Assembly (NCBI GenBank): GCA_965207885.1
Contig: OZ242311.1
Coordinates: 3,072,001 to 3,136,000, forward strand
DNA: 64,000 nucleotides
DNA from: Candidatus Latescibacterota bacterium
GTDB lineage: Bacteria > Latescibacterota > UBA2968
Reading direction: 5' to 3'
The first letter of the stretch is position 1; every line of letters begins with the position of its first letter. The position numbers and the translations under genes are program-made. The notes beneath the pieces are model-generated. The model was given only the letters and a program-made list of their open reading frames with translations, ran no database searches and was not told the DNA's origin. This document shows, piece after piece, positions 25,391 to 42,570 of this stretch.

Positions 25391-26482
25391 TTATCGCTTG
25401 AAAAATGGTCGGGGAACAATCCGCGCTTTGAGGGTGTGGTTTCGGATTGCAATGGCGAGTTCTGTTCCAATTTCTGAATGGTTGGGCGGGACATAACCCA
25501 TTGCGATATTTTTTTTCAGATAAGGCGCGGCTGTACCACTGGTGACTTTGCCAATTGCATTTCCCGAATGATCCAGGATTTCGTAACCGTGGCGGGGGAT
25601 GCCGCGGTCGATCATTTCAAGCATGACAAGTGTTTTTGTGAGGCCATCAGCGCGCTGTTGCTCAAGGGCGTCAGAACCAGAGAATCCGCCCGCCTGTGAG
25701 ACGAACCGATCCAGCCCGGCTTCTAATGGTGTTGTTGCTTCGTCGAGTTCCTGTCCGTAGAGGGGGAGAGAGGCTTCGACGCGGAGTGTATCCCGCGCGC
25801 CCAATCCTGCAGGTGATACATCGGGTGATGCGATGAGGGCATTCCAGATTGCCGCTGCATCTTCTGTTCGCGTAAATATCTCAAAACCATTCATTCCTTC
25901 GCCAGTATATCCCGTGCGGGCAATGTGAACGGGTATTCCCACAAGTTCTACTTTGCGAATGCGAAAAAAACCGATTTCAGAGAGGTTCCGATTTGCGATA
26001 GGGGAGAGTACAGCCTCCGCTTTTGGTCCTTGAAGCGCGAGAAGGGCAAATTTTTCACTGCGATTGGCTACTTGAACATTATCAAAGGATTTTGCGACTG
26101 CCTGGACATGTTTCCAGTCTTTATCGATATTTGCGGCATTTACGACGATCAGATATGTCGTTTTGCCGAGGCGGTAAACGATAATGTCGTCAATTGCGCC
26201 GCCATTTTTGTTGAGAAATAGAGAATACTGTCCGCGCCCAATGCCGATGCGGTCTATGTCATTGGCAGTTAGAAATTGGACCAGTTTTTTGGCTCCTTTA
26301 CCTTTAAATTCAAATTCTCCCATGTGCGAGACATCAAAAAGTCCGGCTTTTGATCGCACCGCTTGATGTTCCGCGACGATCCCCTCGTATTGTACCGGCA
26401 TTTCCCATCCGCCAAATGGAACCATTCGGGCGTTAATTTTGTGATGTATTTCGTTTAGTGGGGTTTTTTTAAAGTTTTCCAA
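25391..26482 (-). CDS. gcvT: Glycine cleavage system aminomethyltransferase T
   Basis: FGGWEMPVQY, FDVSHMGE, RTGYTGE and GLGARDTLR.EA motifs; TTG start after GAGGAG. Confidence 0.94.
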   Translation of the reverse strand: MENFKKTPLNEIHHKINARMVPFGGWEMPVQYEGIVAEHQAVRSKAGLFDVSHMGEFEFKGKGAKKLVQFLTANDIDRIGIGRGQYSLFLNKNGGAIDDIIVYRLGKTTYLIVVNAANIDKDWKHVQAVAKSFDNVQVANRSEKFALLALQGPKAEAVLSPIANRNLSEIGFFRIRKVELVGIPVHIARTGYTGEGMNGFEIFTRTEDAAAIWNALIASPDVSPAGLGARDTLRVEASLPLYGQELDEATTPLEAGLDRFVSQAGGFSGSDALEQQRADGLTKTLVMLEMIDRGIPRHGYEILDHSGNAIGKVTSGTAAPYLKKNIAMGYVPPNHSEIGTELAIAIRNHTLKARIVPRPFFKR

Positions 26483-26742
26483 CTATTTTCTCCTCTTTTT
26501 GTTTTAAATTTCAGTTTTCTCTCTCCCGGTCCTTTCAGGTCCTTGTTTTTTAAATTTGTTCCACTCCTGTTTTTATCGTCAGTTTTGATCCTATTTTTTC
26601 GTTTTTCCCCGTGTTTTTTGAAATATCCAGTTTTTTTTAGTTTCAGAACATTTATTTTTTAAAAATCCGTGTTAAAATGCGTCTTTCTTAAAAAAATAAC
26701 AAAAATTCGCTATTTGTGCGCTATTTTTCGTTATTTCACCCC

Positions 26743-26771
26743 TTGACAATATGGAAAAATAATACTAATTT
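26743..26771 (+). promoter_or_regulatory. Sigma70-like promoter of the HTH/coiled-coil gene
   Basis: Exact TTGACA at 26743, TAATTT 17 nt downstream, and a GGGAGG RBS before ATG 26821. Confidence 0.6.
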
Positions 26772-26820
26772 AATGGAAAATTATTGTAAATAAATTGGAA
26801 TTTAAAAAGGGAGGAAAGAG

Positions 26821-27423
26821 ATGGAAAATTATGGAATTACTGAGGCTGCAAAAATTCTTAAAGTTACTGATAAAACAATAAGAAATTACATAAATAGAGG
26901 TTTTTTAAAGCCCGAAAAATGGAATGGAACCTGGCGTATATCCAGAGGTGAAATTGAGGAATTATTTAAGAAAAAATTTGGAAAAAAAATGATAGAAAAC
27001 CAGATTAACTTGAGCCATAATCTGGATCAAATTCTCGTCGAAAAATCCGAATTTGAAGCTCAACAACAGCAATTGGGAAAATTGGCAGCGATCGAAACAG
27101 TTGAAAGGGAACTGAGAGCGGAAATTCGCAATATAAATGAACGCAATGCACAATTAGAGGCTTCATCAGCCTCTGGATGGACGGAAGCACGGGCGTTGAA
27201 AGAAGAACTGGAAAAAACACGAGAAGAGCTGAATATGGCGGAAGAAAGGGGAAAAAAAGCAGAACAAGACGCAAATTGGCTGCGCAGACAACAAAAAGAA
27301 GTGGAAATAACCGCTCAGAAAAGCGCTGAAACGATTCAAAAACTCCGCGAAGAGAATCAACGGCTGTCAGATCTGTTATATCAACGGGCTCTTGGACTTG
27401 GGCGCGCGGATGTGAGAGATTAG
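26821..27423 (+). CDS. Excisionase/MerR-like winged-HTH protein with long C-terminal coiled coil
   Basis: YGITEAAKILKVTDKTIRNYI.RG.L......WRI (HTH_17/Xis-like), followed by about 120 aa of E/K/Q/R-rich heptads. Confidence 0.8.
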   Translation: MENYGITEAAKILKVTDKTIRNYINRGFLKPEKWNGTWRISRGEIEELFKKKFGKKMIENQINLSHNLDQILVEKSEFEAQQQQLGKLAAIETVERELRAEIRNINERNAQLEASSASGWTEARALKEELEKTREELNMAEERGKKAEQDANWLRRQQKEVEITAQKSAETIQKLREENQRLSDLLYQRALGLGRADVRD

Positions 27424-27520
27424 CACCACAAACACCAGTAAAATGAAATAATAGGTATTACATCAAGCCTTGATATAAGGATGGGTATTATACAGCAGTT
27501 TTAGGCTGATTTTGGTAGTA

Positions 27521-27716: not shown

Positions 27717-28379
27717 CTAATCTATCTCAATACCCATCATGTTCAATTGCCCGCGTGCAAATCTCGTGACAGACGACTCATTGTATTCTTTGACGATCTT
27801 TTGATACGCCTCACTCGCTTGCTGGGGCATTTTGCCGAGTTCGTAACATCTGCCGGCTTCCTTCAGGGCTATCGGTGCAAAAGGCGATCCGGGTTGCGCT
27901 TCGGCAAAAGCTGTGAACTGTTGACCTGCTTCGGCGAATTCTCCTTCGCTTTCAAGACAGGACGCCAAACCCGACCAGGCACCATACCCCAATGGTCCAT
28001 CTACTGGGTATTCATCCAGATATTGCTGAAAATATGTGCGGGCCTCTGGAATGCGACCTTCTTCATAATGCAAATTGGCCAGAGCCATCAGTGCTTCGCC
28101 CGCTTCGGCTTCGCCTGCGTAGGTTTCCATTACTTCTTGAGATGAGGCAATCGCATCTTCTACGCGCCCTTCATAAAGTGCGATATAAACGTCTCCGAGA
28201 GCTATGCGAGCCGCGTCTGCGCGTTGTGTTTGTCCGCGATAAAAAAACAGGACAATCAACGCGGCGACAATGGCAATGCCAAATCCCGTGAGGATTCTGA
28301 TATAATTTGCTTCAATCTGGCCCCAGACCCTGAGAAACCAGACCAGTATGTCTTCTTGTTGCGGCTGTGGTTGCTGCAT
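27717..28379 (-). CDS. Membrane-anchored TPR protein (YfgM-like)
   Basis: Single N-terminal TM helix followed by TPR repeats (A...F....YP pattern). Confidence 0.75.
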   Translation of the reverse strand: MQQPQPQQEDILVWFLRVWGQIEANYIRILTGFGIAIVAALIVLFFYRGQTQRADAARIALGDVYIALYEGRVEDAIASSQEVMETYAGEAEAGEALMALANLHYEEGRIPEARTYFQQYLDEYPVDGPLGYGAWSGLASCLESEGEFAEAGQQFTAFAEAQPGSPFAPIALKEAGRCYELGKMPQQASEAYQKIVKEYNESSVTRFARGQLNMMGIEID

Positions 28380-28504: not shown

Positions 28505-29239
28505 TCACAGTAGTTTTTCGCGCTCTATCATTCGTCTCAGAGCCAGAAAAATAAACAATATGCCCAGAATCGCAATGCCCGCACGGTTTAAGACCACGCG
28601 ATTTATCCACAGGCTGGTATCTAAATCTGAAGGCGGATCAAATGGCTTGAGAAAAAGGTAATACGATGTCTCTTCAAATATCTCCGTAGAAAGCAAAATC
28701 GCAATCAAAAGTCCCACGGCGAGCATGCCAGCCGCATTGCCACTGCGGAACAAAACAGAAAACAAAAATGTGGCTCCCACCATAAAGAAGGCGGGGATAC
28801 ATGCATTCAATCCGCCTAGAAGGTAGGGGAATTCCGCAAAAAAATAGTAGGAAATCGTGCTCATTGCCATCAGCGTGATAAATAGTGCAGCACTGATCGA
28901 CACAATTCTCACGGCCCACGTCGCGTAGTGGCTGACCGCCGTGCTGAAAAGAATTTCAAGCGTATCATTATCCCGCTCCCCCGACACCAGATCCATCGTC
29001 AGGTAAATCGCAAGCACCGTGCCCGGTACTTCAACCAATACATGGAGGGCTTGTTCGACTGAAAGCCCTTCACCCGGACGCCAGATTGCAATCGCGTACA
29101 AAATTGCGTAATACGCGACAATCCCGCCAAACATAAAAATCATTTTGCGGTGAAACACGATTCTCATGCTCAGGCTGTGCAATTTGCCTACGAAAAAGAG
29201 CAACTCACGCCATGTTAGACTGTTTGTATTCATCGCCAT
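28505..29239 (-). CDS. ABC-2 type transporter permease
   Basis: About 6 TM helices and a DLVSGERDNDTLEILFS coupling motif; start overlaps the end of the upstream fusion gene. Confidence 0.8.
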   Translation of the reverse strand: MAMNTNSLTWRELLFFVGKLHSLSMRIVFHRKMIFMFGGIVAYYAILYAIAIWRPGEGLSVEQALHVLVEVPGTVLAIYLTMDLVSGERDNDTLEILFSTAVSHYATWAVRIVSISAALFITLMAMSTISYYFFAEFPYLLGGLNACIPAFFMVGATFLFSVLFRSGNAAGMLAVGLLIAILLSTEIFEETSYYLFLKPFDPPSDLDTSLWINRVVLNRAGIAILGILFIFLALRRMIEREKLL

Positions 29240-32200
29240 GTCGCAAAAGATAAAGGTACGCATCTTCGAGGGTGGGCGCAACAGCACGCGCTTCTGGGAT
29301 GGGATCAGTAGCGAGGAATCGCACCCGAATCCCGTCGGGCACGCGCACATGTGTAATCATATCCAGGTCGCGTTCCAGCGCTTCAAAACGCGGATCTGGC
29401 AGCAGAGCCTCCCACACCTTATCGCGCGCCAAATCGCGCATCTCAATCGGGGTTCCCGTATAAAGCAACTTGCCGTGATTCAGCACGGCCAATCGGTTGC
29501 AACTACCCGAAATATCTTCGACAATATGCGTAGAAAAAATAATGATTTTTTCCTGGCTAAATCGCGCCAGCAGATTTCTGAACCGGATACGCTCGAGTGG
29601 GTCCAATCCCGCTGTCGGCTCATCCACCACAATAATCTGCGGCAAGTGCAACAGGGTTTGTGCAATGCCCACGCGCTGTTTCATACCGCCGGAGAACGAC
29701 CCAATCAGATCGTCTCGCCTATCCCACAGATTGACCTGCTCCAGACATTCCTGAACGCGCTTGCGTCGTGCTACCCCATCCTTAAATCCCTCTAAAAGCG
29801 CGCGATACTCCAGATAATTATACGCAGACATGTGCAGGTACAGGCCAAAGTGCTGCGGCAAATATCCAATGACCCCCTGCATATTCCGATGTGTAAGTGG
29901 TATTTTACCATTTGCGAGTACCGACCCGTAATTTGACGACAAAACCCGACACACAATCCGCATCAGCGTGGTCTTGCCCGCGCCATTGGGCCCCAAAAGC
30001 CCAAACATCCCGCGCGGAATATCGAGACTCACACCGCCGAGAGCCTGGAATTGCGGGCGCGGAACACCAATCAGGGGTATGGCTGCAGCGCCGCGGTACA
30101 CGATGCCCTTAACAGGACCTAATTTGCCCGGTATATGCTCGGGATCAACGCGACCATTTGCTACGCGATTTGCCAAAAATCCGATGATGCGATAGAGCAA
30201 GTAGATTGCAGAAGTGGCGATGGTCAAAGATATAAGTTCCAAACGCCAATGGATAAAGGCGATAAAGACCAGCGGCAAAATCAATCGGACGATTTGTGAT
30301 ATCCATCTGTTCTCAATCTGAAAATCGCGCAAAGCCGCCGCGCATAGCACGAGGTGATGTATGAGGCCCCATATAGCAAGCCCCGCCAAAAATATCCAGG
30401 CTCCCTGTTCAAAATAGGTTTCCAAGTAAATCAAAAGTGCCAGAAGTGGTAACTTCCACCACAAACTGTCCCTGATCGCCTTTTTATCTACCAATACCTG
30501 CCCGCGCTCTAAAAGGCGCTGATGACGCCGCTTAAAGCGATCCCATTCATGCTTAAATCGCCCCGGCGCACCGTAAATTTTTGTCAGATTGCGAATTTCG
30601 AGATGCTCAATATTGCCGATCTCAGCAAGAGAAGCCATACGCGCGCGATAAATGCGTTGCACTATCCAGATCACACCCATACACAACATCCACGCTGGCA
30701 ATGCCAAAAGATAGGTCCAGAACAAACTCTGGTAATAATCGTCAACCCAATACGTCAATCCCGCGGCTGCTGTTGTTCCCAATACGATCCCGAACCAGCC
30801 AATATCCGTAAGCCAGGCTTTGGTCTGGTCAATTCCCATGTACACCACGGGAATAAATACGAGGGTGGAAACTGTTGAAACCGCCAGCCCTCCGATTACC
30901 ACAATCGCAAAGGGTGGCCAAATTTCGTAATCGCCGCCAAATATGAGTGCCAGAGGCAACATGCCCAAAATGGTGGTTGCCGAAGTCATTAATACAGGAC
31001 GCACGCGCGACCGGCTCGCCGTGAGCACCGCGCGTTCTCGCCTGAACCCACGGCGGCGAAGGGTTTCAATCGCATCAATCAGCACGATCCCATTGTTGAC
31101 GGCAATACCGCTCAAAACAATAAGCCCCAACAGTGCCATTGGCGCTTCTTGTGAGGTCAATCCCGTCCCCGATAAGATCAGTGCCCAGCACGATCCAATA
31201 ATTGCTGCGGGCAACGTGCACAAAATAATCACAGGCGCAGAAAGCGATTCAAACAAAGAGGCCAAAATCATAAAAATCAATAGAGCGGCAATGCCCATCA
31301 TCCAGTAATAAATTGTCTCTTCCTCTGCCTCAATCATTTCGATACTATACCCTTCGGGCAGCACCATTTCAGAGACCACAGCTTGCACATAAGCGCGGGA
31401 GGCTTCCAGCAGAGGTTGAGACTGCAAAATTTCTTCGGCAAAGCGGTACGAGACAATCACGCGCCGCGATTGATCGGTGCGCAAAATCATGCTCCTGCCC
31501 TGATCCCGGCGCACATGCGAAACTTCTACAAGGGGGATATAAGTCCCCCCCGTACCCAGAATCGGCGTCTGTCTCAATCCCGCAATACCCTCCCCCTCTT
31601 CTTCCGGGTCTTCGACATTGCGAACATCAATCGGGATTTCAGTGCCTTCGGGTGTGAGAAATGAAATATTGGATCGCGCACCGCGCGGATTGGCGTCGGA
31701 TACGGCATTGAGCACCTGGCGCACCTGCAATCGCCGATCAAACATTATTTCTTCATCGGGCAAAACATGCACTTCAGATGCGCCGCGTTCTGCATCGGCT
31801 CTTACGCTATTCGGATCGATTTCCTCCAATTCTTCGAGGCGATAGACCAGATCGTCGGCAAGCATTTGAAGCACCGTAAAATCATAGCCGCGAATGACAG
31901 CCATTTCCGAAGGCGCGCCACCTTCCAGATTGAATCCGCCCGAGGCCTGACGGGTGCCCCGAATACCGCCTCCCCCGCCTCCCCCTCGGCCCCCACCACC
32001 ACCTCCCCTGCCCGTGCGCGCGATGGCCTCATAACTCACAATCGCATTTTGGACTTCACCGAATGACTCTTCGAGATTTTCCTTGATGAGATCGACAGAA
32101 ATCTGGTCGGGGCGTTCGGATAAGGGCAAAAGCGCTACATTGATACTCGCCTGGGTTTCGCTGATACTGGTCGTAAAGCGATCTATACCTTTGAGATCTC

Positions 32201-33932
32201 GCACAGCACTTTCAATTTCGCCAACAACAGCATCAAGGGCTTCAATAGTCGTGCCTTCGGGCATGCTGATATAGACGGTAAAACGGCTTTCCTCGCGGCG
32301 AATATCTTGTTGCAGCATATAGAAAAAAGAAATGATCAGCGTAATGACAAGCGCGCCGACAATACCCAGTGACACGCTAATTCTGTGGCGCAAGCCCGCT
32401 TTGAGGCACACCGTGTACATCTCGATCAATGCGCCTGTTCCCGTCGGTGGTCGAGATGCGAGAGAAAGGGTTTTCGATGCGAGGGCAGGCACAAGTGTGA
32501 GGGCTACGAGCAGAGAGGCAAGCAGAGGAAAGGCGATGGACAGCGCGAATTCTCGCAGGATATCCTGAAAGTCGCTTTGAATAAAAACAACAGGTAAAAA
32601 GACTGTAATGGTTGTCGCGGTTGCCGCAACAACGGCGCGTGCGACCTCATCGGTTCCTGCTTTTGCGGCTTCTTTGGGGGATTTGCCCTGTTCAAAATGC
32701 TTGAAGATATTTTCCATGACCACAATGCCATTGTCCATCAACATGCCAACTGCAAGCGCGAGGCCGCACATCGAGAGCACGTTCAAACTGAGATCCCACA
32801 TATACATCAAATTAAATGTGAGCAACAAAGAACACGGAATGGCGAGGAGCAAAACAGCGACAAAACGCAAATTTCTCAAAAATAAGAACAAAACAAAAAG
32901 CCCGAGCAATCCCCCGACAACAGCGGCCCGTTTGAGAAAATTGAGGGCTTCGTTCATAATCTCTGCCTGATTCTGGCTGATCACGAGCTGGATATTTTCA
33001 TAGGCGAGATCGCCGTTGACGCGTTCTATGGTGTCTTCGAGTTCTCCTGCAAGTTCGATGAGATTGGCTTCATCGTCTTTTTGAATGCGGATGCCAACGG
33101 CGGCTTTGCCATTGATTCGTTGCAGGTCTGTACGCTCCTGAAGGCCGTAGCGAATTTTGGCAATGTCGCCAAGGTGCAGGGGCAATTCCGGTTTGATAAC
33201 GACTCTGCGGATTTGCACGAGGTCTGTAAATTGGCCCTGAATGCTGACCGCATAAGCCTGGTCGCCGTCGTACACTCGCCCGAGATATTGTCGTCGCGTA
33301 TTAAACGCATTGATGCGATTGCGAACATCGGACATCGAAAGCTGGTGCGCCTGCAGCATCAATGGATCGACAATAATTTCAATAGCCGTCCTTTGCCCAC
33401 CCAGGACCTGCGCGTTGACAACGCCATCGACCGCTTCCAATTCCGGTCTGATTTTCTCCTCGGCAAATTCGCGCAACCAGTTTATATCGCCTTCGCCCAA
33501 CACGTGGATTTGCATCACCGATGCACTCAGATCAGAGGAATCAAAGCGCTGTATGTTGACCCGCGTTCTTGCGGGCAAAAGCGGTTGCAGGCGCGTGATG
33601 CGGCTTTCGAGCTGTAGCAGGGCGAATTTCATATCCGTATTGGGCGCGTAGGAAATGCGTACCCCGCCGTTATTCTGGCGCGAAAAGGACTCATACGCCT
33701 CAATGCCTTCGAGTTTGCCCACCTCTCTCTCGACGGGCATCACCAATTCCCGCTCGACCTGTTCGGGCGAATAGCCCTGCTGAGTGACTGTGACAAAGAC
33801 CTCCGGGCGGACGAGTTCGGGAAATATCTGAACGGGCAACCGATCCAATGAAATCGCGCCTAAAATAGCCAGACCTATAAAAAACATGGCCGTAGTCACG
33901 GGCCGCAGAACGGCAATACCAGCAAGTGTCAC
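29205..33932 (-). CDS. RND (AcrB-like) permease fused to extra TM helices and an ABC ATPase (1575 aa)
   Basis: RND motifs RPVTT, [26 protein letters not shown] and [11 protein letters not shown]. C-terminal NBD with [23 protein letters not shown] and STH, all in one frame. Confidence 0.9.
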   Translation of the reverse strand: [1575 protein letters not shown]

Positions 33933-36900
33933 GCGGATTTCCTCCGGAGGCGATCAATTAGTTCATACATGGTGGGTATCACGAGTAAGGTCATCAATGT
34001 CGATGTCACCAGGCCGGCAATGACGGCAATAGCCATAGGCGCGCGCAATTTTGCCCCCTCGCCAAAGCCGATTGCCATGGGCAGCAGGGCGAGAATAGTC
34101 GTCGCACTCGTCATCATAATGGGGCGCAAGCGGTCTTGACCGCCCTGTAGAATCGCTTCTCGCAACGTCAGGCCAGCTTGCCTGAGCTGGTTGATGCGAT
34201 CCACGAGAATGATCGCATCGTTGACCGCAATACCGCCTAGCATAATGATGCCGATATAGGCCATCACACTGAGCGGTTCGCCCAAAAAATAGAATCCAAA
34301 TATCACGCCGACGCCGGCTAAGGGAACGGAAAACATGACGGTAAACGGATGGAGCGTGGATTCAAATAGCGATGCCATCACCATATAGACCAGCACAATC
34401 GAAAGCAGGAGCGCAAATTTGAGACTTTCAAATGATGCCGCTCGCTCGCGCTCTTCTCCGCCAATTTCAATGCGATACCCCGACGGCACAACCACTTCCT
34501 GCATGGTGGCGCGTACGTCGGCAACGGCTTCACTTAAAATGCGTCCTTCTGTGAGATATCCCGTAATGCGCCCTACGCGACGCTGATCTTCTCTCAAAAT
34601 TTCGCGGGGACCTTCAATAATATTGAGCTCGGCAATATCCCCCAACGTCAGGATCGCGCCATCTGTTCCTTCGATTTGCATGGTGTGGAGTTCGCGCAGA
34701 TCAATATCTCGATATTTTACCCGAATATCCCGCGTGCGCTGGTCTTTAGACAGTTCGCCAGCAACTTCACCCGATAATTGTCTTTCCAATGTGCGGCTGA
34801 TGGTCTGGGTGGTCAATCCGAATGCCGCCGCTACCTCATCGCGAATCGCCAGATCGACTTCTGGCTGCCCGCCCTGAAAGCTCGTGCGCACATTGTACAC
34901 CGAAGGCAGATCCTCAATCCTCGTCTGAAGCTCTTTTGTGATGCGTGCCAAAATATCGAGATTTTCTCCAGACACTTCGACCTGAATGGGCGCTTCTTGT
35001 CCCCCCATTACGCCTTCAAGCGCGGTTTCGTGCAACTTGTATTTCACTTCGATATCGGGCATGGCACTTAAAATGGGATCCAGGTCGCGCACCAATTCGC
35101 TGACGCTGCGCGACCGCTGTGTGTGCAACGCCACCGATAGAGTCGCGCGATTGGGACCCGTCGGTTCGCCTCCGGTCGATATCCGAGCGGGGTTGAGGCC
35201 GGTCAGCGCGTACACATGCGCCACATCACTCCCGCCAACGCTTTCGACAATCTCTTTGACGTGCAGGGCGACCTGATCGCTCAGTTCCACACGCGAGCCT
35301 TCGGACAATGTGAGGTCAATTTGGAATAGCCCTTGATCTTCGCGCGGAATAAATTCTGTCTGCAACTCGCGGGCGATATACCCGGTTCCGCCCAGAATGA
35401 GCAATACGACGCCGAGCATGATGAGTTTGCGGTTCAAAATACCATTGAGAAACCGATAGTATTTGTCCGACCGAACAGTCGTTTTGTGCGTCGTATTCAA
35501 CCGTCTAAAGATGCGCGACGTCAGCATCGGAATCGTCGTCATTGCCACAACCAGAGAAGACAACAGAGAAAATGCAACTGTCCATGCCTGATCCACAAAG
35601 AGTTTGCCCGCCAGCCCCTGCAAATAGACAATGGGCAAGAAGACAGCCACGGTCGTCAGCGTTGAAGCCAAAATTGCCACGCCGACTTCAGAGGCGCCGC
35701 GGCTCGATGCTGTGCGCGCGTCCTCGCCGCTTTCCAGGTGACGATAAATATTCTCAATAACCACAATGGCATTGTCAACGAGCATGCCCGCACCCAGAGC
35801 CAACCCGCCCAGCGTCATAATATTCAGGGACAGCCCTTCAAAGTACATAAGTGTGAATGTCGCCAATACTGAAATGGGAATTGCCAACCCTATCACCAGC
35901 GTCACTGTCCAACTCCGCAACGCGATCAAAAGCACGAGAATCGCCAAAAATGCCCCGTGAATGGCTGATGTTTCGACTTCTCCTATGGCATCTTCGACAA
36001 ATCGCGCCTGGTTTTCGACGGTTGTGAAGTGCATGCCGCTCAGGTCTGCTTCGATATCGTCTATCGCATCCAATACCGTATTGACCACGGCGACTGTATT
36101 GCTACCGGCTTCTTTGTAAATAGCGAGGCCAACGCATTCCCGTCCGTCGAGGCGCACAATGGTTTCTCGCTCTTGATATTCCAGGTCAACCGTGCCCACG
36201 TTGCGCACGCGTACCGGCACGCGATCGCCAGAAACTGTGCCCCCTCCCCCGCGCCTTTCTCCCACGATGACTTCCCGCACATCGTTTATGTCATCTAAGC
36301 GACCGAGGGCTTTGACCAGATACGACTGCTGATTTTCTCTGAGCGTACCTCCGGATACATCGGCATTTGCCTGTGCGATGCGGTTGATGACCGCATCGGA
36401 TGAAAGTCCAAACGCTTCGAGCAAATAAGGATCGAGTGTAACGCGCACTTCCTTTTCCGCTCCCCCTTCCACCTCGGCAGACGCCACGCCGTCGAGGGCT
36501 TCCAATTTGGGTTTGATCAACAATTCTACCGTACCCATCAATGCGTCGAGTTCCGTGTTTTCGTCTGCTGTAATCGCAATGCGCATCACCGCAAGCGAGA
36601 GCGGATCTTCGCGCGTCACATCCAACTGTGATACATCTTCATTGACCGCATAGCGCCCCACTCTTTTTTGCACGTCGAGCAACCCGTAATCCATGTCCGC
36701 ATCCCAGGCAAATTCTGCAATGACCACAGCCTGCCCAGAGCGGGTAATCGAATAGACGCGCTTGACGCCGTTAATCGTGCTCACATCGCGTTCGAGGCGG
36801 CGCGTATAGCTTTCTTCAATCTCGACAGGCGATTTGCCCGGTGCTGTCAGGTCTATGGTGACGACTGGCGTCTGCAAATCGGGCAAGAGATCGGTACCCA

Positions 36901-36994
36901 ACCCGTCTAACGATATCCATCCAAGCAACACTACCGCGAGAGTCGCCATGGCAATCGTCACGGGATATCGCGTTGAAAATTCCGGCAAATTCAT
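33929..36994 (-). CDS. RND efflux permease (AcrB/SwrC-like)
   Basis: RYPVT, [26 protein letters not shown] and [9 protein letters not shown].TT motifs. Confidence 0.93.
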   Translation of the reverse strand: [1021 protein letters not shown]

Positions 36995-38064
36995 CGTCTA
37001 TCTCCCGTGACCCGCACTCGAGTTCGCGGCCTCAGCGTTTCGTAATTGCTCGTGATCAACTGTTCACCTGGTTCAAGTCCTACCACAATTTCCACGCGGT
37101 CTCGGTCTTCCAGACCTGTTTCGACTTCGCGTTGTTGTGCGCGGCCTTCTTCTTCGACGAAAACGACCTTCTGATTTCGCCGCCGCAAAACGAGATTGCG
37201 CGTAATAAGTACGACGTTTTGCCGCGATTCCGTGACTATTTCTGTTTTGACAAACATCCCCGCCCGCAACAGCAAGTCGGGATTATCGACCATTCCGACG
37301 ACCTGAACCGTGCGCGTGACCGGATCAATAGCCGGATCCATTTCAACAATCTCGCCCTCAAAAACTTCTTCGGGCAAAGCGTAATTGCTCACGCGGATGC
37401 TCTGGCCCAATTTCACGTTAATAATCTGGGCATTGGGAATTTTCAGATCGACAAATACCTGTGAATAATCCATAATTTTTGCGATTGCGGTATTCGGCGT
37501 CACCAGCGTTCCCTGCGTAATATCCGCGAGTTCCGACAACACACCCTGTATGGGAGCTAAAAGCCTGGTTTTGTCGATCTTGATGAGGGCATCCTGATAA
37601 TTGGCTTCTGCATCGGCCCAGGCTCTACGCGCACTTTCGACGTCCATTTCCGTTGCCAGTTGTCGGCTAAACAGGGTTTCCTGTTCTTTTAGCGTTCGCT
37701 TGGCTGTTTCAACCGCCAGTTTACGCGCTTCCACCCGTGCGCCGACAACCCATTCGTCGCTGTCGAGTCGCGCTATGGTTTGCCCCCTTCTAACCTCTGC
37801 CCCTTTGGCGAGTAGGCGGTTATTACTCCCCTTGCTCCAGTACAGATTTCCCCGAATCTCCGTTGTGATCTGGGCTTCGCGCACAGGTCTAAGTGTCCCG
37901 GTCGCTGTCACAATGGATTCGATTGTTCCCGTCTCTACGGATTGAACAGTAACGGGAACCGTCAGGTCAACGGTGCGCTGTTCCGCCTGTTGATCACAGG
38001 CGACCAGCCCACAAAGGACAATTGTCAACAGAAATTTTGAGCAAAAATCAAACTTCACGTTCAT
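36991..38064 (-). CDS. Efflux RND periplasmic adaptor (MFP) lipoprotein
   Basis: Lipobox GLVAC; lipoyl motifs G..V.RGQ.IARLD and APIQG; DP.TRT and L.AGMF. Confidence 0.9.
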   Translation of the reverse strand: MNVKFDFCSKFLLTIVLCGLVACDQQAEQRTVDLTVPVTVQSVETGTIESIVTATGTLRPVREAQITTEIRGNLYWSKGSNNRLLAKGAEVRRGQTIARLDSDEWVVGARVEARKLAVETAKRTLKEQETLFSRQLATEMDVESARRAWADAEANYQDALIKIDKTRLLAPIQGVLSELADITQGTLVTPNTAIAKIMDYSQVFVDLKIPNAQIINVKLGQSIRVSNYALPEEVFEGEIVEMDPAIDPVTRTVQVVGMVDNPDLLLRAGMFVKTEIVTESRQNVVLITRNLVLRRRNQKVVFVEEEGRAQQREVETGLEDRDRVEIVVGLEPGEQLITSNYETLRPRTRVRVTGDRR

Positions 38065-38076
38065 TCCTCCGTTAAA

Positions 38077-41000
38077 TTAAAATCCCAAAAATCCGCCGCC
38101 CCCCCTGTTACCACCGGGACCTCGCCTACCATCCCCGACGCGATCACCACCGCCACGTCCGCCACCTGGTCCACCTCTGCCGCGCCCGGTAAAGGTGGGC
38201 ATTTCATCTTCGTAGGCATCGGGGTTTTCCGGATCAAAAAAGCGCCATCGCACGGCATCGGCATAGAGACCCCCTCGCCCTTCTGCGCGGTCAGACAATT
38301 CGACTGCGGCTTCTTCGCCCTCGGTAAATTTGTATCGACCCAGATAATTCCATCCCGCTTTCATCTGGTCGCGTTCTATTTCGATTGTATCGGCTTTGCC
38401 CCCGTGAAAAACCGTGAGTGTAAAGGTCGATGCAATTCGAATGCGCCTGGCCATTGAGGGATCGGGAAAAAAGAAGCTCACATCGTACTCGCCGTCTCTG
38501 GGCATTTGCGCTGCCCAAACCGCAGGCTGTGCACCATCCCCTTGAGACTTTCTTCGGTAATTTGTCTCAAATCGTCCAAAGGCCATTGGCAGTCCCTGTT
38601 CGCGCCAGTTGCCGCCTTTGAGTCCGGGCCGGAAGTAGCGCGTTGCGCGCCGCACGGGCATTGAAAATCCGTCGTCGTCATTATCTACAATAATCTCAAC
38701 AGGACCAGACTCTTCGCCTGTCACGTCTTTGACATAAGCAACTGGAAATCCCTCTGTGACATCTTCGGGAACGCGCACGGGGGACATCAGAGAGCGCCGA
38801 TTGCGCGCAAAAAAGGGTTCGACCATCACCCTGAATGGTTGCTCCCACAGAACCATCGAAACTTCAACCTCCTGTCCCCCTTCAATCTCTACGCCCTTCA
38901 GGGCCTCATCGCCCCGCCCCGTAGCAGTAATTTGCACATATCCCCTGCCCGGTTCGCTATTCTTAATCCGCAGAATCAATTGATAGACCACCATTCCAAA
39001 GCCGTCGTCCATCTTCAGAGCTTTTACCCTTGTGAGGGTATAGCCCGGGATTTCTGTACTAAAAATCCAGTCGTTGACGAGGCGTTGCAATTTTTGGCTC
39101 TCTTCACTTTCTGTGGTATCGCCCACAGCGGCGCGTTCAAAGGTCGAAAAATCGATGTCCTCGTATTTGTGATTGTGGTCTATGTCGTCTAAGACCGTGC
39201 GAAATGTTTCCTCACCTAAAAAAGATTCCATCATTTGAAAAAGTGCGGGTCCCTTGGCGTCGAGAACCTGGCGATAGAGGCCAGCTTGCTTTTCGGGATT
39301 CAAATCGGCAAATGATTTTCGTTGCATTTTCGCAATTAACGTATCCCAGGCAGCACCCGATCCCCCGCCCGAGCCGAAGCGCCCACCGGGACCACCGCGC
39401 CCTCCGGGACCACCGCGCCCTCCGGGACCATCGCGCCCGCCTGGTCCACCACGCCCGCCACCGCGTCGTTGGCTCGAATAAAACGCAGAGGTCATATCGG
39501 TGCTCAAATCATTCTGGAGATACAGGGGCATGCCCTTTTTGAGAAGGGAATGATGTTCGCCCACAAACTGCTTGTCATAAGCCCAGAGTTGAACAACAGG
39601 GCTGCGAAACAACCCACCGGGTTGTCCCTGTCTGCCCGAATTTCCTTCTCGGGAAAAAAAGGTCGAAAAAACCGCGCGTACCAAAAGGTCCTTTTTAATA
39701 TCTTTGGGTTCACGGTTGCCGCGCGAGCGCTCTTGAGAACGCCTAAAATCGCGGGTAAATTGCTGCCTCATGAACACATCTTCTTCAATCATCAACACGC
39801 CGGGCTGTGTCAACCCACCCTTTTCTTCCCAGCCTTCGTAATACCACTGAACGTGGAAGGGAATTTCCACTAGAGAAAGACTGGGATAGGGATATTTCAT
39901 GCCCGATTCCTGCTCCATTGCGTCCATAATTTGCTCAAGTGCGCGCAAAATCTCTTCCTCGGCATCTTCAAAAAATCGGACCGGACGCAGATGCGATGGG
40001 TGGGCGTAAAGGGCGCATTCGACATCGTGAATGGTCGCGCGATAAACGCGGTATTCGCCCGCATTTAGCGATAGGACGGGCACGGGCTTATCAATAACCC
40101 ATTGGCGCGTTACCTGTGTGCCGAGTGTATCGGATTCGCCTACCTGTCCTTGAGTAATGACTTCGATGCCTTGCGGATATGTTATTTGCAAATTTGCCGT
40201 TGAAAAAGAGACCTTACGCGTGTCCTCATAGCCGTAATCAACGCCTGTCACGGGATACCATCGGCTGCGCGGAGGCAAAAAGACGGAATTGTCGCGAATC
40301 CACGCCGTCAAAGAGCCTTTATTAAATATACCAAATGGCCCTTCGCGTTTGCGCAGCTTCGGTCTCGCTTTTTCTCGTTGGAGATCAAAACCATCCGTGT
40401 TAATATCACCCGCATAAGCCAATGTCAGATCGAATTCTCGCTCCGATTGCAGGGGGTTAGCGGGTATGACGCGGATCACGCTTCCCATACGCTCCCACGC
40501 TATTGCGCCGCCATCGCCGCGTGTTAGATTCTGGATTTTGAATCCGGGGTTGAGTGAAAGAATCAGCGTATCGAGCGGAGATTCGTGGGGGTTTTTCAAT
40601 CTAATCGTACCTGAGGCGGCAAGCGGCTCCTCCCCCAAAAGTGTCAATGCCAGATCGTAATGGGTTATTTCCGCAACGGGAATATTCGCTACCGCTTCTT
40701 GTTGCTCTAACAGCGAATGGCGATACGCTTGCCCGTCTTGCGCCGCTGCATCCATATAAAAGTAAAGGCCCACAGCCAGACCAAAACCGGTCACTGCACA
40801 GCCGCGGCCAAACCACCGCGCAATCAAAGAATGTGCAAGACGGGGATACCAATCAATTGAAAAGCCAAAAAATCCAATGCCGAGCAGGATGTAAAACAGG
40901 CGCTTTAGCCCCACTTGCGTCATATCTGCCAGACCAATCAGGTCGGAATAATACAGAGGCGTAAAAAAAGCACCAAAGTCATAGATGCCGTCATATCGCC

Positions 41001-41586
41001 TGCCCAGGAATAACAGGACAGCCAACAAATACCCGATCACAATCAGGGCAACTGCCGCTTGCCGCCGCAACACTGCACCCAGAAAAAATGTCACAGAAGA
41101 CATAAAAATCAGAGCGGGCAGGTTCATGAGCACGAGATAGCTAATATAGGGTTTTATTGTAAATGGATTACCCGTCATACTGATTTTTGCAGCCTGGATA
41201 CTCAGGGTTAAGAGCAGAACGCCCAGACTCAAAAAGACAAGCGCACTAACAATGCCCAGGTACTTACCCGCAACCAGTTCCGCAGTCGAAATGGGACGCC
41301 CGGCCACGACTTCGTAAATATGCGCCTGTTCATCCGCCGCTCTAAAATCCCCCACGATAAATGCTATGACAATGGTCTGCAAGAAACTGTACACTAAAAA
41401 CGGGACATAAGAATCGATTCCCACGGGCAGTTCAGCACCATTGGCTTCTGCTATGGCAAAGCCTATGCCGAGTAAAACGGGAATGCTCATGCCCAGACCG
41501 CCTAAAATACGGAATTTTGTGGTTCTCAAGAGCATTTTGCGCTCATAACGCGCAACACCCCATACATTGTAGAAAATAGATAGCAT
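38077..41586 (-). CDS. ABC-2 permease fused to a degenerate M1 aminopeptidase-like domain and a C-terminal golvesin/xanthan-lyase CBD-like domain
   Basis: N-terminal TMs with RPISTAELVAGKYLG; M1-like HYDL.L, WYP, YPYP.L.LVE and KG..LF.M....LGEE.F; C-terminal IIVDNDD.GF...GWNYLG.Y.F...YADAVRW. Confidence 0.75.
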   Translation of the reverse strand: MLSIFYNVWGVARYERKMLLRTTKFRILGGLGMSIPVLLGIGFAIAEANGAELPVGIDSYVPFLVYSFLQTIVIAFIVGDFRAADEQAHIYEVVAGRPISTAELVAGKYLGIVSALVFLSLGVLLLTLSIQAAKISMTGNPFTIKPYISYLVLMNLPALIFMSSVTFFLGAVLRRQAAVALIVIGYLLAVLLFLGRRYDGIYDFGAFFTPLYYSDLIGLADMTQVGLKRLFYILLGIGFFGFSIDWYPRLAHSLIARWFGRGCAVTGFGLAVGLYFYMDAAAQDGQAYRHSLLEQQEAVANIPVAEITHYDLALTLLGEEPLAASGTIRLKNPHESPLDTLILSLNPGFKIQNLTRGDGGAIAWERMGSVIRVIPANPLQSEREFDLTLAYAGDINTDGFDLQREKARPKLRKREGPFGIFNKGSLTAWIRDNSVFLPPRSRWYPVTGVDYGYEDTRKVSFSTANLQITYPQGIEVITQGQVGESDTLGTQVTRQWVIDKPVPVLSLNAGEYRVYRATIHDVECALYAHPSHLRPVRFFEDAEEEILRALEQIMDAMEQESGMKYPYPSLSLVEIPFHVQWYYEGWEEKGGLTQPGVLMIEEDVFMRQQFTRDFRRSQERSRGNREPKDIKKDLLVRAVFSTFFSREGNSGRQGQPGGLFRSPVVQLWAYDKQFVGEHHSLLKKGMPLYLQNDLSTDMTSAFYSSQRRGGGRGGPGGRDGPGGRGGPGGRGGPGGRFGSGGGSGAAWDTLIAKMQRKSFADLNPEKQAGLYRQVLDAKGPALFQMMESFLGEETFRTVLDDIDHNHKYEDIDFSTFERAAVGDTTESEESQKLQRLVNDWIFSTEIPGYTLTRVKALKMDDGFGMVVYQLILRIKNSEPGRGYVQITATGRGDEALKGVEIEGGQEVEVSMVLWEQPFRVMVEPFFARNRRSLMSPVRVPEDVTEGFPVAYVKDVTGEESGPVEIIVDNDDDGFSMPVRRATRYFRPGLKGGNWREQGLPMAFGRFETNYRRKSQGDGAQPAVWAAQMPRDGEYDVSFFFPDPSMARRIRIASTFTLTVFHGGKADTIEIERDQMKAGWNYLGRYKFTEGEEAAVELSDRAEGRGGLYADAVRWRFFDPENPDAYEDEMPTFTGRGRGGPGGGRGGGDRVGDGRRGPGGNRGGGGFLGF
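39386..39457. repeat. Four 18-bp tandem repeats encoding GRGGPG-like units
   Basis: CCGGGACCACCGCGCCCT twice, then two degenerate copies. Confidence 0.8.
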
Positions 41587-41598
41587 AGTATTAATCCT

Positions 41599-42492
41599 TT
41601 ACGCGGCGATTTCGCCAGTGGTATCGCCCCCGACAAAATAGACATAGGCATCTTCGAGATTGGGCGCGACTGCTTCGGCATCAGCGGGAGGCTCGCCATC
41701 GCCCACCATACGCAAACGCATCAAATCGCCCTCGACATTTACTGTGACTACGCGAAACACCCGCGACAGCATTTCAAAGCCAGCGTCATCGACCTGTACT
41801 TCCCACGTTTTGCCATCGGCTTTTGAAATGAGTTCTCCGGGAGAACCGCGAAAGATCAGACGTCCGGTATCCAGGACCGCGAGATCTTCGCAGGTACTTG
41901 AAATGTCGCCCACAATATGCGTGGAAATCAAAATTGCGCGATCGCTGCTCAAGCGTCCCAAAATACCCCGAAACCGTATGCGCTCTTCCGGGTCAAGTCC
42001 CACGGTGGGTTCATCGACAATGAGAAACTCTGGATCGGTCAAAATGGTCTGTGCAATGCCAAGGCGACGCATCATGCCACCTGAAAACGTGCCCGAACGC
42101 CGATTGCGCGCTTCGTACAATCCGACTTCGTTTAGAGCTTGCTCCACGCGATTCAAACGCGAACTTCTATTATGCATGCCGCCTAAAACAGCCATATAAT
42201 CGAGAAATTCCCAGGCAGTCAGTTGTGGATAGGTCCCAAAATGCTGGGGCAAATATCCCAGGCGCCGGCGAATTTCAGTGCGGTCTTTTACGAGGTCGAA
42301 CTCATCCATGGTCACGTTGCCACTCGATGCGTCCATCTGAGTCGATAAAATTTTAATCAGCGTTGTCTTGCCTGCACCATTGGGTCCCAATAGGCCAAAT
42401 GTTCCGTGCGGAATGGTCAATGTGACATCGTCTAAGGCGGGAACCGCGCCACGTCGATATACTTTTGTCAAGTTTGAAATGCGAATAACCAT
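41599..42492 (-). CDS. ABC transporter ATP-binding protein
   Basis: GPNGAGKT, FSGGMMRR, LIVDEPT and STH motifs; GAGGGG RBS before ATG 42492. Confidence 0.93.
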   Translation of the reverse strand: MVIRISNLTKVYRRGAVPALDDVTLTIPHGTFGLLGPNGAGKTTLIKILSTQMDASSGNVTMDEFDLVKDRTEIRRRLGYLPQHFGTYPQLTAWEFLDYMAVLGGMHNRSSRLNRVEQALNEVGLYEARNRRSGTFSGGMMRRLGIAQTILTDPEFLIVDEPTVGLDPEERIRFRGILGRLSSDRAILISTHIVGDISSTCEDLAVLDTGRLIFRGSPGELISKADGKTWEVQVDDAGFEMLSRVFRVVTVNVEGDLMRLRMVGDGEPPADAEAVAPNLEDAYVYFVGGDTTGEIAA

Positions 42493-42537
42493 CAATATGC
42501 CCCTCATTGTGCTTTGCCAACGATTAGACCTGAAATT

Positions 42538-42553
42538 TGCAAATAGTGTTCCC
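42538..42553 (-). promoter_or_regulatory. Possible sigma54 (-24/-12) promoter of the transporter operon
   Basis: GGGAACACTATTTGCA has correct GG-N10-GC spacing but departs from TGGCAC at two positions. Confidence 0.4.
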
Positions 42554-42570
42554 ATATACGGCAAAATTTA

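Follow-up and report, generated by a model that had tools for sequence, protein, structure and literature searches.

The first strand of an ATPase and the question it raises

ATP-binding cassette (ABC) ATPase domains belong to the most thoroughly studied protein modules and are treated as compact soluble cassettes, which meet the membrane only via the coupling helices of a separate domain. A gene of Candidatus Latescibacterota bacterium raises the question of whether such a cassette can itself be interrupted by membrane helices. We analyzed a window of 64,000 nucleotides from this bacterium, and all coordinates given here are positions in that window. The open reading frame 29205-33932 on the minus strand encodes a 1575-residue chain, in which a resistance-nodulation-division (RND) permease continues at its C terminus into an ABC ATPase. 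A preliminary description, made from the sequence, had proposed that this ATPase is split by a membrane insert of about 170 residues between its first two beta strands, that it is anchored through this insert, and that the arrangement reflects an old and selected fusion. A conserved family with membrane helices inserted into the cassette, immediately behind the residue that binds the adenine ring, would offer a new way of attaching an ABC motor to a membrane machine, and possibly of coupling it.

A complete ABC ATPase at the C terminus of an RND permease

In a Pfam scan of the 1575-residue protein, ACR_tran covered residues 6 to about 1030 (E 1.6e-178) and ABC_tran residues 1300-1441 (E 2.9e-25), with no family between about 1035 and 1295. 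The ABC_tran model (PF00005) gave the fused domain 89.9 bits against a cut-off of 25. From its second strand (beta2) to the C terminus the domain comprises residues 1295-1575 (29208-30050, minus strand), as delimited by the ABC_tran match, by sequence matches in the Protein Data Bank (PDB) and by structural alignment with VIA-align (Z 25-28). The full motif set of an ABC ATPase was found: Walker A (GPNGAGKT, 1314-1321), the Q-loop (Q1360), the signature (FSGGM, 1413-1417), Walker B with the catalytic glutamate (IIVVDE, 1433-1438) and the H-switch (H1469). K1320/T1321, Q1360, S1414-G1415-G1416, D1437, E1438 and H1469 are invariant in an alignment of 116 sequences, in agreement with the earlier remark that Walker A, signature, Walker B and H-switch are all intact. 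The aligned and modelled piece consisted of residues 1030-1575 (546 residues; residue number equals alignment or piece position plus 1029). The nearest domains by sequence were those of ABCA, TM_1403/TM0544 and NosF, and the PDB matches (ABCA4/7/1/3, TM_1403 and NosF) all start at piece residue 259 or later. Judged by sequence and by model, the fused RND permease ends in an ATPase domain of the ABC-2 type that is complete and has every catalytic motif.

The first strand lies 174 residues ahead of the second

The NCBIfam models GldA, PQQ-ABC and LptB matched the fused domain only from profile position 15-17, and the stand-alone paralogue encoded in the window from position 1-3. The decapeptide LEIRNLTKIY, which had been proposed as the first strand (beta1), occupies residues 1111-1120 (30573-30602). 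FQALGG begins at residue 1295 (nucleotide 30050), and exactly 174 residues lie between the two. A ten-column beta1 profile, built from 39 stand-alone ATPases and scanned over all 1575 residues, gave 24.78 bits at 1111-1120, and the runner-up anywhere in the protein gave 5.16 bits. When residues 1031-1294 were shuffled, none of 5000 shuffles reached the observed score (best shuffle, 18.78). We also aligned 40 stand-alone, 18 long-insert and 8 short-insert proteins with E-INS-i. The decapeptide was aligned with beta1 of 38 of the 40 stand-alone ATPases, the N terminus being absent from the remaining two, and a single long gap accommodated the insert. The strand was visible in 13 of the 18 long-insert rows, the other five being misaligned or wholly or partly cut off when the sequences were trimmed to 215 residues. 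Of 138 family members with 1500 residues or more, 134 have their best beta1-like 10-mer 180-280 residues ahead of Walker A, as compared to about 23 normally.

The strand and the residues that follow it are among the best-conserved stretches in an alignment of 112 sequences. L1116 was conserved in 111, K1118 in 112 and Y1120 in 110 of them (phenylalanine in the other two), followed by G1121 (103), P1123 (101), G1124 (98), R1125 (96) and W1130 (111). An aromatic A-loop residue normally stacks on the adenine of ATP, and by its position Y1120 is presumed to be this residue. Mean-field direct coupling analysis for contacts of beta1 in the sheet (201 family sequences, effective number 147) gave noise among the top pairs and no readable contacts. 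The comparison had been drawn with the stand-alone paralogue, and the sequence quoted for it was recovered in the reading frame 41599-42564 on the minus strand.

Predicted structure of the C-terminal module

The preliminary description had suggested modelling of about residues 1030-1575 with AlphaFold. Using the alignment of 116 sequences, the AlphaFold2 model of residues 1030-1575 reached a mean predicted local distance difference test score (pLDDT) of 93.6 and a predicted template modelling score (pTM) of 0.85. Residues 1110-1120 form a strand (piece 81-91, block pLDDT 97; 30573-30605, minus strand), which AlphaFold2, the profile and the alignment all place as beta1 with the presumed A-loop tyrosine Y1120. 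The strand thus stood exactly where it had been put, except that the model lengthens it by one residue. Beta2 comprises residues 1295-1306 and is followed by a normal ABC domain plus a C-terminal beta-rich extension.

VIA-align was run against the 1000 best Foldseek chains. In the 50 alignments listed, solved nucleotide-binding domains (NBDs) matched with Z 25-28, and in all 50 the model range begins at piece residue 76-82. In the single-domain alignments the solved chain begins at residue -1 to 5 (in one case at 20), and in those to ABCG and ABCA proteins the alignment starts at each domain's own first residues. Examples, in each of which almost the entire target is covered, are 1vpl (Z 26.7, root-mean-square deviation (rmsd) 2.0 Å, 234/238 aligned), LptB 4p33_A (Z 26.8, rmsd 2.3, 230/235), MJ0796 1l2t_A (Z 25.8, rmsd 2.2, 217/230) and TM_1403 4yer_A (rmsd 3.9, 268/285). 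The output consists of the first and last aligned residues only; because model residues 92-265 are all helix or loop, the first strand of the targets can be matched only by residues 1110-1120. The model and its alignments contain a complete NBD fold, including beta1 and the aromatic residue ahead of Walker A. In the model, the strand takes the canonical place of beta1 in the sheet, and the chain leaves the domain at the beta1-beta2 turn to form the insert; the possibility that LEIRNLTKIY lies outside the NBD sheet was not borne out. With the residue count, the beta1 profile and the model in agreement, the proposed split between the first two strands holds: as far as sequence and model can tell, a conserved insert of about 174 residues stands between the first strand of the ABC domain and all that follows.

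Helices of the insert are predicted to span the membrane

Six long helices flank beta1 along the chain in the model. H13 (residues 1031-1067; 30732-30842, minus strand; piece 2-38) is the first arm of an extra hairpin after transmembrane helix 12 (TM12) of the RND part, and H14 (1070-1102; 30627-30725, minus strand; piece 41-73) is the second arm, with a basic stretch at its end. The insert itself (residues 1121-1294; 30051-30572, minus strand) is modelled as helices with block pLDDT 77-97. It starts with a basic helix (1125-1142, piece 96-113), continues with H15 (1150-1173, piece 121-144), H16 (1177-1201, piece 148-172), H17 (1209-1231, piece 180-202) and H18 (1234-1258, piece 205-229), and ends with a linker helix (1272-1283, piece 243-254). 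H15-H18 have 23-25 residues each, and with connecting loops of only 3, 7 and 2 residues they make up two tight hairpins. Hydropathy and model therefore recovered the roughly four hydrophobic helices reported for the insert as well as the two between the last RND helix and the strand.

Kyte-Doolittle 19-mer peaks were 1.93 for H14 (1073-1091), 2.07 for H16, 1.85 for H17 and 1.67 for H18, as compared to 1.97-2.49 for the RND helices. On an approximate Hessa-type scale, with the best 19-mer used for each helix, H14 scored 0.6, H16 0.9 and H18 2.0; the RND helices ranged from -2.3 to 2.1 and the soluble ATPase helices from 12 to 27. Based on these scores, each hairpin consists of one clearly hydrophobic and one marginal helix. 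Over 112 homologues, lysine plus arginine averaged 4.4, 9.5, 4.3 and 9.2 in the four predicted cytoplasmic segments and 0-1.0 in the three outer turns; the loop after H14 contributes 4.4 on average. The predicted spans are even in number on either side of beta1, which a cytoplasmic location of the RND C terminus, of beta1 and of the ATPase would demand. The H13-H14, H15-H16 and H17-H18 hairpins are predicted, from hydrophobicity and helix length, to be membrane-spanning.

In hydrophobicity the helices of the insert equal the RND helices of this protein or fall a little short of them, and the prediction favors an insert embedded in the membrane. The proposal that the NBD is anchored through its own beta1-beta2 loop was supported with one qualification: the insert has helices of transmembrane length, but the predicted H13-H14 hairpin holds beta1 from the N-terminal side too. 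Among 344 candidate proteins of 95-305 residues, none was a stand-alone relative of the insert at E <= 0.001. A search of the ESM Atlas with residues 1089-1299 gave best scores of 0.84-0.85 in tiny unnamed clusters and no lead.

The fusion is conserved and widespread

A search with residues 1035-1575 listed 120 homologues with identities from 39% to 99%. Walker A lies beyond residue 1200 in 111 of these, and the other nine are shorter fragments. Their sources include Gemmatimonadetes, Latescibacteria, Acidobacteria, KSB1, Calditrichaeota and Mangrovibacterium marinum, and their database names are 'efflux RND transporter permease subunit' or 'ATP-binding cassette domain-containing protein'. The alignment with homologous fusions that had been called for showed the insert in all 112 aligned homologues, with its columns filled in nearly all sequences, and the split strand as one of their best-conserved parts. 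The length of the insert varies mainly in the H16-H17 loop, which has a mean of 19.7 residues and 8 here. Two shorter proteins (P0148 and P0124) were considered as stand-alone C-terminal modules and rejected, as both are fragments from contig ends and belong to clusters with members of 1567 and 1570 residues. P0225 is a divergent singleton homologue of 539 residues.

In a scan of genomes we found 34 loci with the long form, the closest in a metagenome-assembled genome of Candidatus Latescibacterota (93% identity). The fusion is one open frame of at least 1565 residues in 29 of them, four are cut by a contig end and one (L027) is broken. Within the phylum of the window's genome, a match at E <= 1e-85 was present in 77 of 151 sampled genomes and in 34 of the 52 high-quality ones. 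There was one match per genome, as in the window's genome with its single copy, and for 70 of the 77 matches the open frame has 1500 residues or more. Cultured carriers are Prolixibacter bellariivorans, Draconibacterium mangrovi, Maribellus maritimus, Marivirga tractuosa, Marivirga sericea, Parabacteroides massiliensis and Bacteroides sp. 224. As the family occurs in cultured, tractable Bacteroidota, genetics, biochemistry and cryo-electron microscopy are feasible. Conserved homologues, single open frames and invariant catalytic residues together strongly support, at the level of sequence, that the fusion and its split strand are old and under selection. The preliminary description had argued the same, and with 111 of 120 homologues, 29 of the 30 uncut loci and about half of the phylum's sampled genomes behind it, the argument stands.

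A second fusion family has a short insert

A second family of RND-ATPase fusions, of about 1440 residues, has a beta1-beta2 gap of 25-55 residues and no extra helices. It was found at L031:5521-9834 and L042:5659-9975 and in the proteins P0166, P0168, P0169, P0189, P0197, P0203, P0219 and P0257. These proteins resemble the long form in joining an RND permease to the same kind of ATPase and in having extra residues between beta1 and beta2. They differ from it in lacking the helix hairpins of the insert and H13-H14, in having no small permease beside them and in their other neighbors. At the two loci the order is an RND gene, a 920-residue ABC-2/M1-peptidase-like protein (L031:2728-5496 and L042:2903-5662), the fusion and then an OEP outer-membrane duct. 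The 920-residue protein resembles the 1169-residue protein directly upstream of the window cassette. ABC-2/M1 proteins and paired RND genes recur together, in more than one form.

Two quick trees of the ATPase core were made from 94 chosen rows, comprising 46 of the 138 long-insert, all 8 short-insert and all 40 stand-alone proteins. In these trees 45 and 44 of the 46 long-insert rows grouped together (SH-aLRT 94 and 84), and a single clade for the long-insert set was not rejected (p-AU 0.087). The order of short and long inserts and the root were not resolved with these 94 rows.

A small permease accompanies the long-insert fusion

The fused gene is part of a tightly packed row on the minus strand. 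The row starts with the stand-alone ABC ATPase paralogue and a 1169-residue protein with weak matches to ABC-2 permeases, M1 peptidases and Golvesin_C (38077-41586). Next are a periplasmic adaptor or membrane fusion protein (36991-38064; Pfam HlyD_D23, E 4e-26; NCBIfam RND_mfp, 189.8 bits against 94.9) and an unfused RND permease of 1021 residues (33929-36994; Pfam ACR_tran, E 8e-232). After the fused gene come a 244-residue membrane protein (28505-29239) and a 220-residue tetratricopeptide repeat (TPR) protein (27717-28379). The adaptor stop and the RND start overlap as ATGA, the RND stop and the GTG start of the fused gene overlap as GTGA, and the start of the small membrane protein overlaps the end of the fused gene by 35 nucleotides. 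The order adaptor, RND, RND-ATPase fusion and small permease recurs in related loci, and in Prolixibacter a gene for an OEP outer-membrane duct stands ahead of the adaptor. The small permease was present in 31 of 31 related loci with at least 900 nucleotides downstream, and in none of 46 loci holding only an ordinary ATPase relative or a short-insert fusion.

The AlphaFold2 model of the 244-residue protein (pLDDT 81.7, pTM 0.80) has six helices with an N-terminal interface helix. VIA-align gave Z 15-17, and type V ABC exporters in 50 of the 50 alignments listed. Among them were NosY 7znq_y (Z 16.6, rmsd 3.4, 215/250 aligned) and ABCG25 8wbx_A (Z 16.8, rmsd 4.5, 236 aligned), as well as ABCG5/8, ABCG2 and ABCA1/3/4/7; Foldseek E-values were weak, 8.5e-3 at best. 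From the model, the permease appears to have a type V (ABC-2) fold, and this class matches the nearest class of the fused ATPase (ABCA, TM_1403, NosF).

A complex prediction for the C-terminal module with the permease scored 0.55, and the best of three controls 0.00. The runs agreed in at least 82% of contacts and the pLDDT of the partner was at least 74. The mark used for such scores was reached by 116 of 157 solved complexes and by 2 of 215 mismatched pairs; scores that reached the mark but did not exceed 0.60 were seen for only 18 of the 157 solved complexes and for both passing mismatches. As ATPase-permease complexes of this class have been solved, the pass may reflect likeness to them.

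The TPR protein follows the small permease in the window and in the closest relative (L001:11442-12101, 88% identity). Long C-terminal matches were listed for 32 further loci, and none of these gave a TPR protein match of at least 50 bits.

Proposed arrangement and alternatives

We consider it likely that the fused gene encodes a split-strand ATPase stapled to the membrane by the predicted helices, with a type V permease as partner, and that the whole is an ABC transporter built onto an RND/adaptor pump. In this arrangement a six-helix membrane domain would staple the ATPase on both sides of beta1 and keep it close to the RND transmembrane domain, next to TM12, on the inner face of the membrane. 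The co-transcribed 244-residue permease would be the transport partner of the fused ATPase, and two fused protomers would supply the two ATPase domains that an ABC transporter needs. The RND part may form a heterotrimer of two fused subunits and one unfused subunit, by analogy with MdtB2C. The ABC part would then extract substrate from the cytoplasm or the inner leaflet, for onward passage by the RND part via the adaptor and an outer-membrane duct. As beta1 lies at the edge of the ATP site and has a covalent link to membrane helices on either side, movements that depend on nucleotide may also reach the membrane domain by way of the insert.

A more far-reaching version, which we put forward tentatively and which seems doubtful when taken as a whole, is a new class of envelope-spanning efflux machine. 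It would combine an RND heterotrimer with two ATPase-bearing subunits, a clamped dimer of the type V permease, ATP and proton cycling on one path, and covalent coupling through beta1. If true, beta1 and the A-loop, wired at both ends, would be a covalent route from nucleotide to membrane that no described ABC transporter uses. One chain here joins two great classes of bacterial efflux, the proton-driven RND and the ATP-driven ABC transporters, and this poses the question of whether both energy sources work on one transport path.

Several observations weigh against the stapled arrangement with its type V partner. The Hessa-type best 19-mers are marginal for H13 (3.2), H15 (6.3) and H17 (4.6), and the family mean Kyte-Doolittle values of the extra helices are 0.99-1.58 over 112 homologues. 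Membrane insertion is read from hydrophobicity and helix length, the six-helix bundle is defined by helix boundaries along the chain, and beta1 was placed by a network to which the ABC fold is already familiar, so that its position is predicted and not measured. The permease scored 17.7 bits with Pfam ABC2_membrane_2 (PF12679), under the cut-off of 27.2, had no NCBIfam family, and its profile found only an irrelevant match among PDB sequences (E 0.21); the score of its complex with the fused module grades as weak support. In addition, 74 of the 151 phylum genomes searched had no cassette match, and the cassette is therefore not essential.

The helices of the insert could instead form a peripheral or soluble bundle on the surface of the ATPase or the membrane, for example in regulation or docking, with the RND part as the only true anchor. 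The marginal hydrophobicity of H13, H15 and H17 (family means 0.99-1.28), the average of 1.8 lysines plus arginines in H17 and the fact that AlphaFold2 models no membrane would fit such a bundle. H14, H16 and H18, however, are as hydrophobic as the RND helices on a scale where soluble NBD helices score 12-27, and each marginal helix is paired with a strong one via a loop of 2-3 residues, which is the usual form of an inserted hairpin. The 23-25-residue helix length and a charge distribution that follows the positive-inside rule also argue for insertion, and we regard a peripheral bundle as unlikely. Another reading takes H13-H18 themselves as the transmembrane domain of an ABC half-transporter threaded around beta1, with the 244-residue protein as a second subunit or an accessory. 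Six helices are the usual count for an ABC membrane domain, and these are covalently attached, strongly conserved and, as the pTM of 0.85 implies, fixed in position relative to the ATPase. Yet the C-terminal module and the small permease family showed a profile likeness of only 0.3% probability with hhalign, no Pfam family falls on the insert, and only model residues 76-546 matched solved ABC proteins, even where these were full-length ABCG and ABCA chains. Given that the separate permease has a type V fold in its model and accompanies the fusion throughout, and that relatives with a 25-55-residue insert and no extra helices exist, this reading is quite improbable.

There is hardly any probability left for an accident, that is, a read-through, an assembly error, or a decayed ATPase of which LEIRNLTKIY would be a relic. 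The broken frame of L027 and the 539-residue P0225, which might be a stand-alone form, would speak for it. Against these stand the uncut loci with one long frame, the phylum matches in frames of at least 1500 residues, the invariance of the catalytic residues in 116 sequences, the conservation of the strand, and the finding that the other apparent stand-alone forms are contig-end fragments. By sequence comparison the accident reading is refuted for practical purposes. We thus keep the stapled ATPase with its type V partner as the preferred reading.

Comparison with known transporters

Extra segments at the same site, beside the A-loop, are known from other ABC proteins. The regulatory insertion of CFTR NBD1, residues 403-438, lies between the first two ABC strands (PMC5873040), and the beta1-beta2 loops of ABCG2, ABCG5 and ABCG8 have about 20, 20 and 40 residues (PMC5065228). 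The CFTR and ABCG segments are soluble stretches of 20-40 residues that are mobile or invisible in structures. The insert described here shares their position but is no short mobile loop. With 174 residues it is confidently helical, hydrophobic and conserved, with four helices of predicted transmembrane length.

An adaptor gene followed by two paralogous tandem RND genes is also the layout of MdtABC and MuxABC, and MdtBC works as a B2C1 heterotrimer (PMC7015380). The window cassette has this MdtB2C-like layout in one operon with overlapping stops and starts, but the Mdt subunits lack both an ATPase and extra helices, and their genes are not accompanied by one for an ABC permease. The NCBIfam MdtB and MdtC models gave the cassette RND proteins 277-403 bits, far under the cut-offs of 1584-1774. 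The type V exporters NosFY, PmtCD, CcmAB, ABCG and ABCA share the sequence class of the ATPase, and the permease model fits NosY, ABCG and ABCA. In these exporters the ATPase either stands alone or is joined straight to its own permease; in none of those listed do membrane helices interrupt the ATPase, and none has an RND permease as part of the chain. MacAB-TolC likewise combines an ABC ATPase with a periplasmic adaptor and an outer-membrane duct, and related loci carry an OEP duct beside the cassette. The ATPase of MacB precedes, on one chain, a permease that has four helices and a periplasmic domain (PMC8277102), whereas here it is C-terminal to an RND permease and the partner permease is of type V by model.

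No report of an RND-ABC fusion or of membrane helices inside an ABC domain was found in the full-text literature searched, with subscription journals, TCDB and InterPro outside its scope. A term search in the opening 300,000 characters of a large Chem Rev review of tripartite pumps (PMC8277102) did not bring up an RND-ABC fusion either. Provisionally, the layout appears to be undescribed in print.

The RND part of the fusion

The RND permease part comprises residues 1-1030 (30843-33932, minus strand). It matches the AcrB/AcrD/AcrF-type profile (PF00873, ACR_tran) over its full length, but a Gly-rich insertion near residue 641 divides the match in two. This Gly-rich run, GRGGGGGGRGGGGGGGIRG..., at residues of about 641-672 (window about 31915-32010, minus strand) breaks the periplasmic part, and the family consensus is likewise Gly-rich at this position. 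With NCBIfam RND_permease_2 the fused RND scored 483 bits, under the cut-off of 1250.

Where AcrB has D407-D408 in TM4 and K940 in TM10, the fused RND has D-N and N-N. The AcrB-like proton relay of the hydrophobe/amphiphile efflux-1 (HAE-1) type is incomplete in both cassette RND proteins: D407 and R971 (TM11) are kept, and D408 and K940 are replaced by asparagine. We considered this loss as a sign of an ATP-driven fused RND and rejected the idea, as the paralogues lack K940 too. None of 16 RND paralogues in the same genome has the K940 equivalent, and most have D-N in TM4 and N-N in TM10, which makes the loss of the relay a trait of the lineage and not a mark of the fusion. Judged from these residues, the proton pathway in the 16 RND pumps of this genome must differ from that of AcrB.

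Other features of the window

The reading frame 44309-46093 on the minus strand encodes 594 residues with reverse transcriptase (RVT_1, E 1.7e-37), group II intron maturase and HNH domains. It corresponds to a group II intron-encoded protein and is located directly upstream of an FdhD-like gene. A patch of low GC content, 0.36 as compared to about 0.50 around it, extends over 26000-27500. It contains the reading frame 26821-27423 on the plus strand, which encodes a 200-residue HTH_17/MerR-type protein and sits between the glycine-cleavage T gene and the TPR gene.

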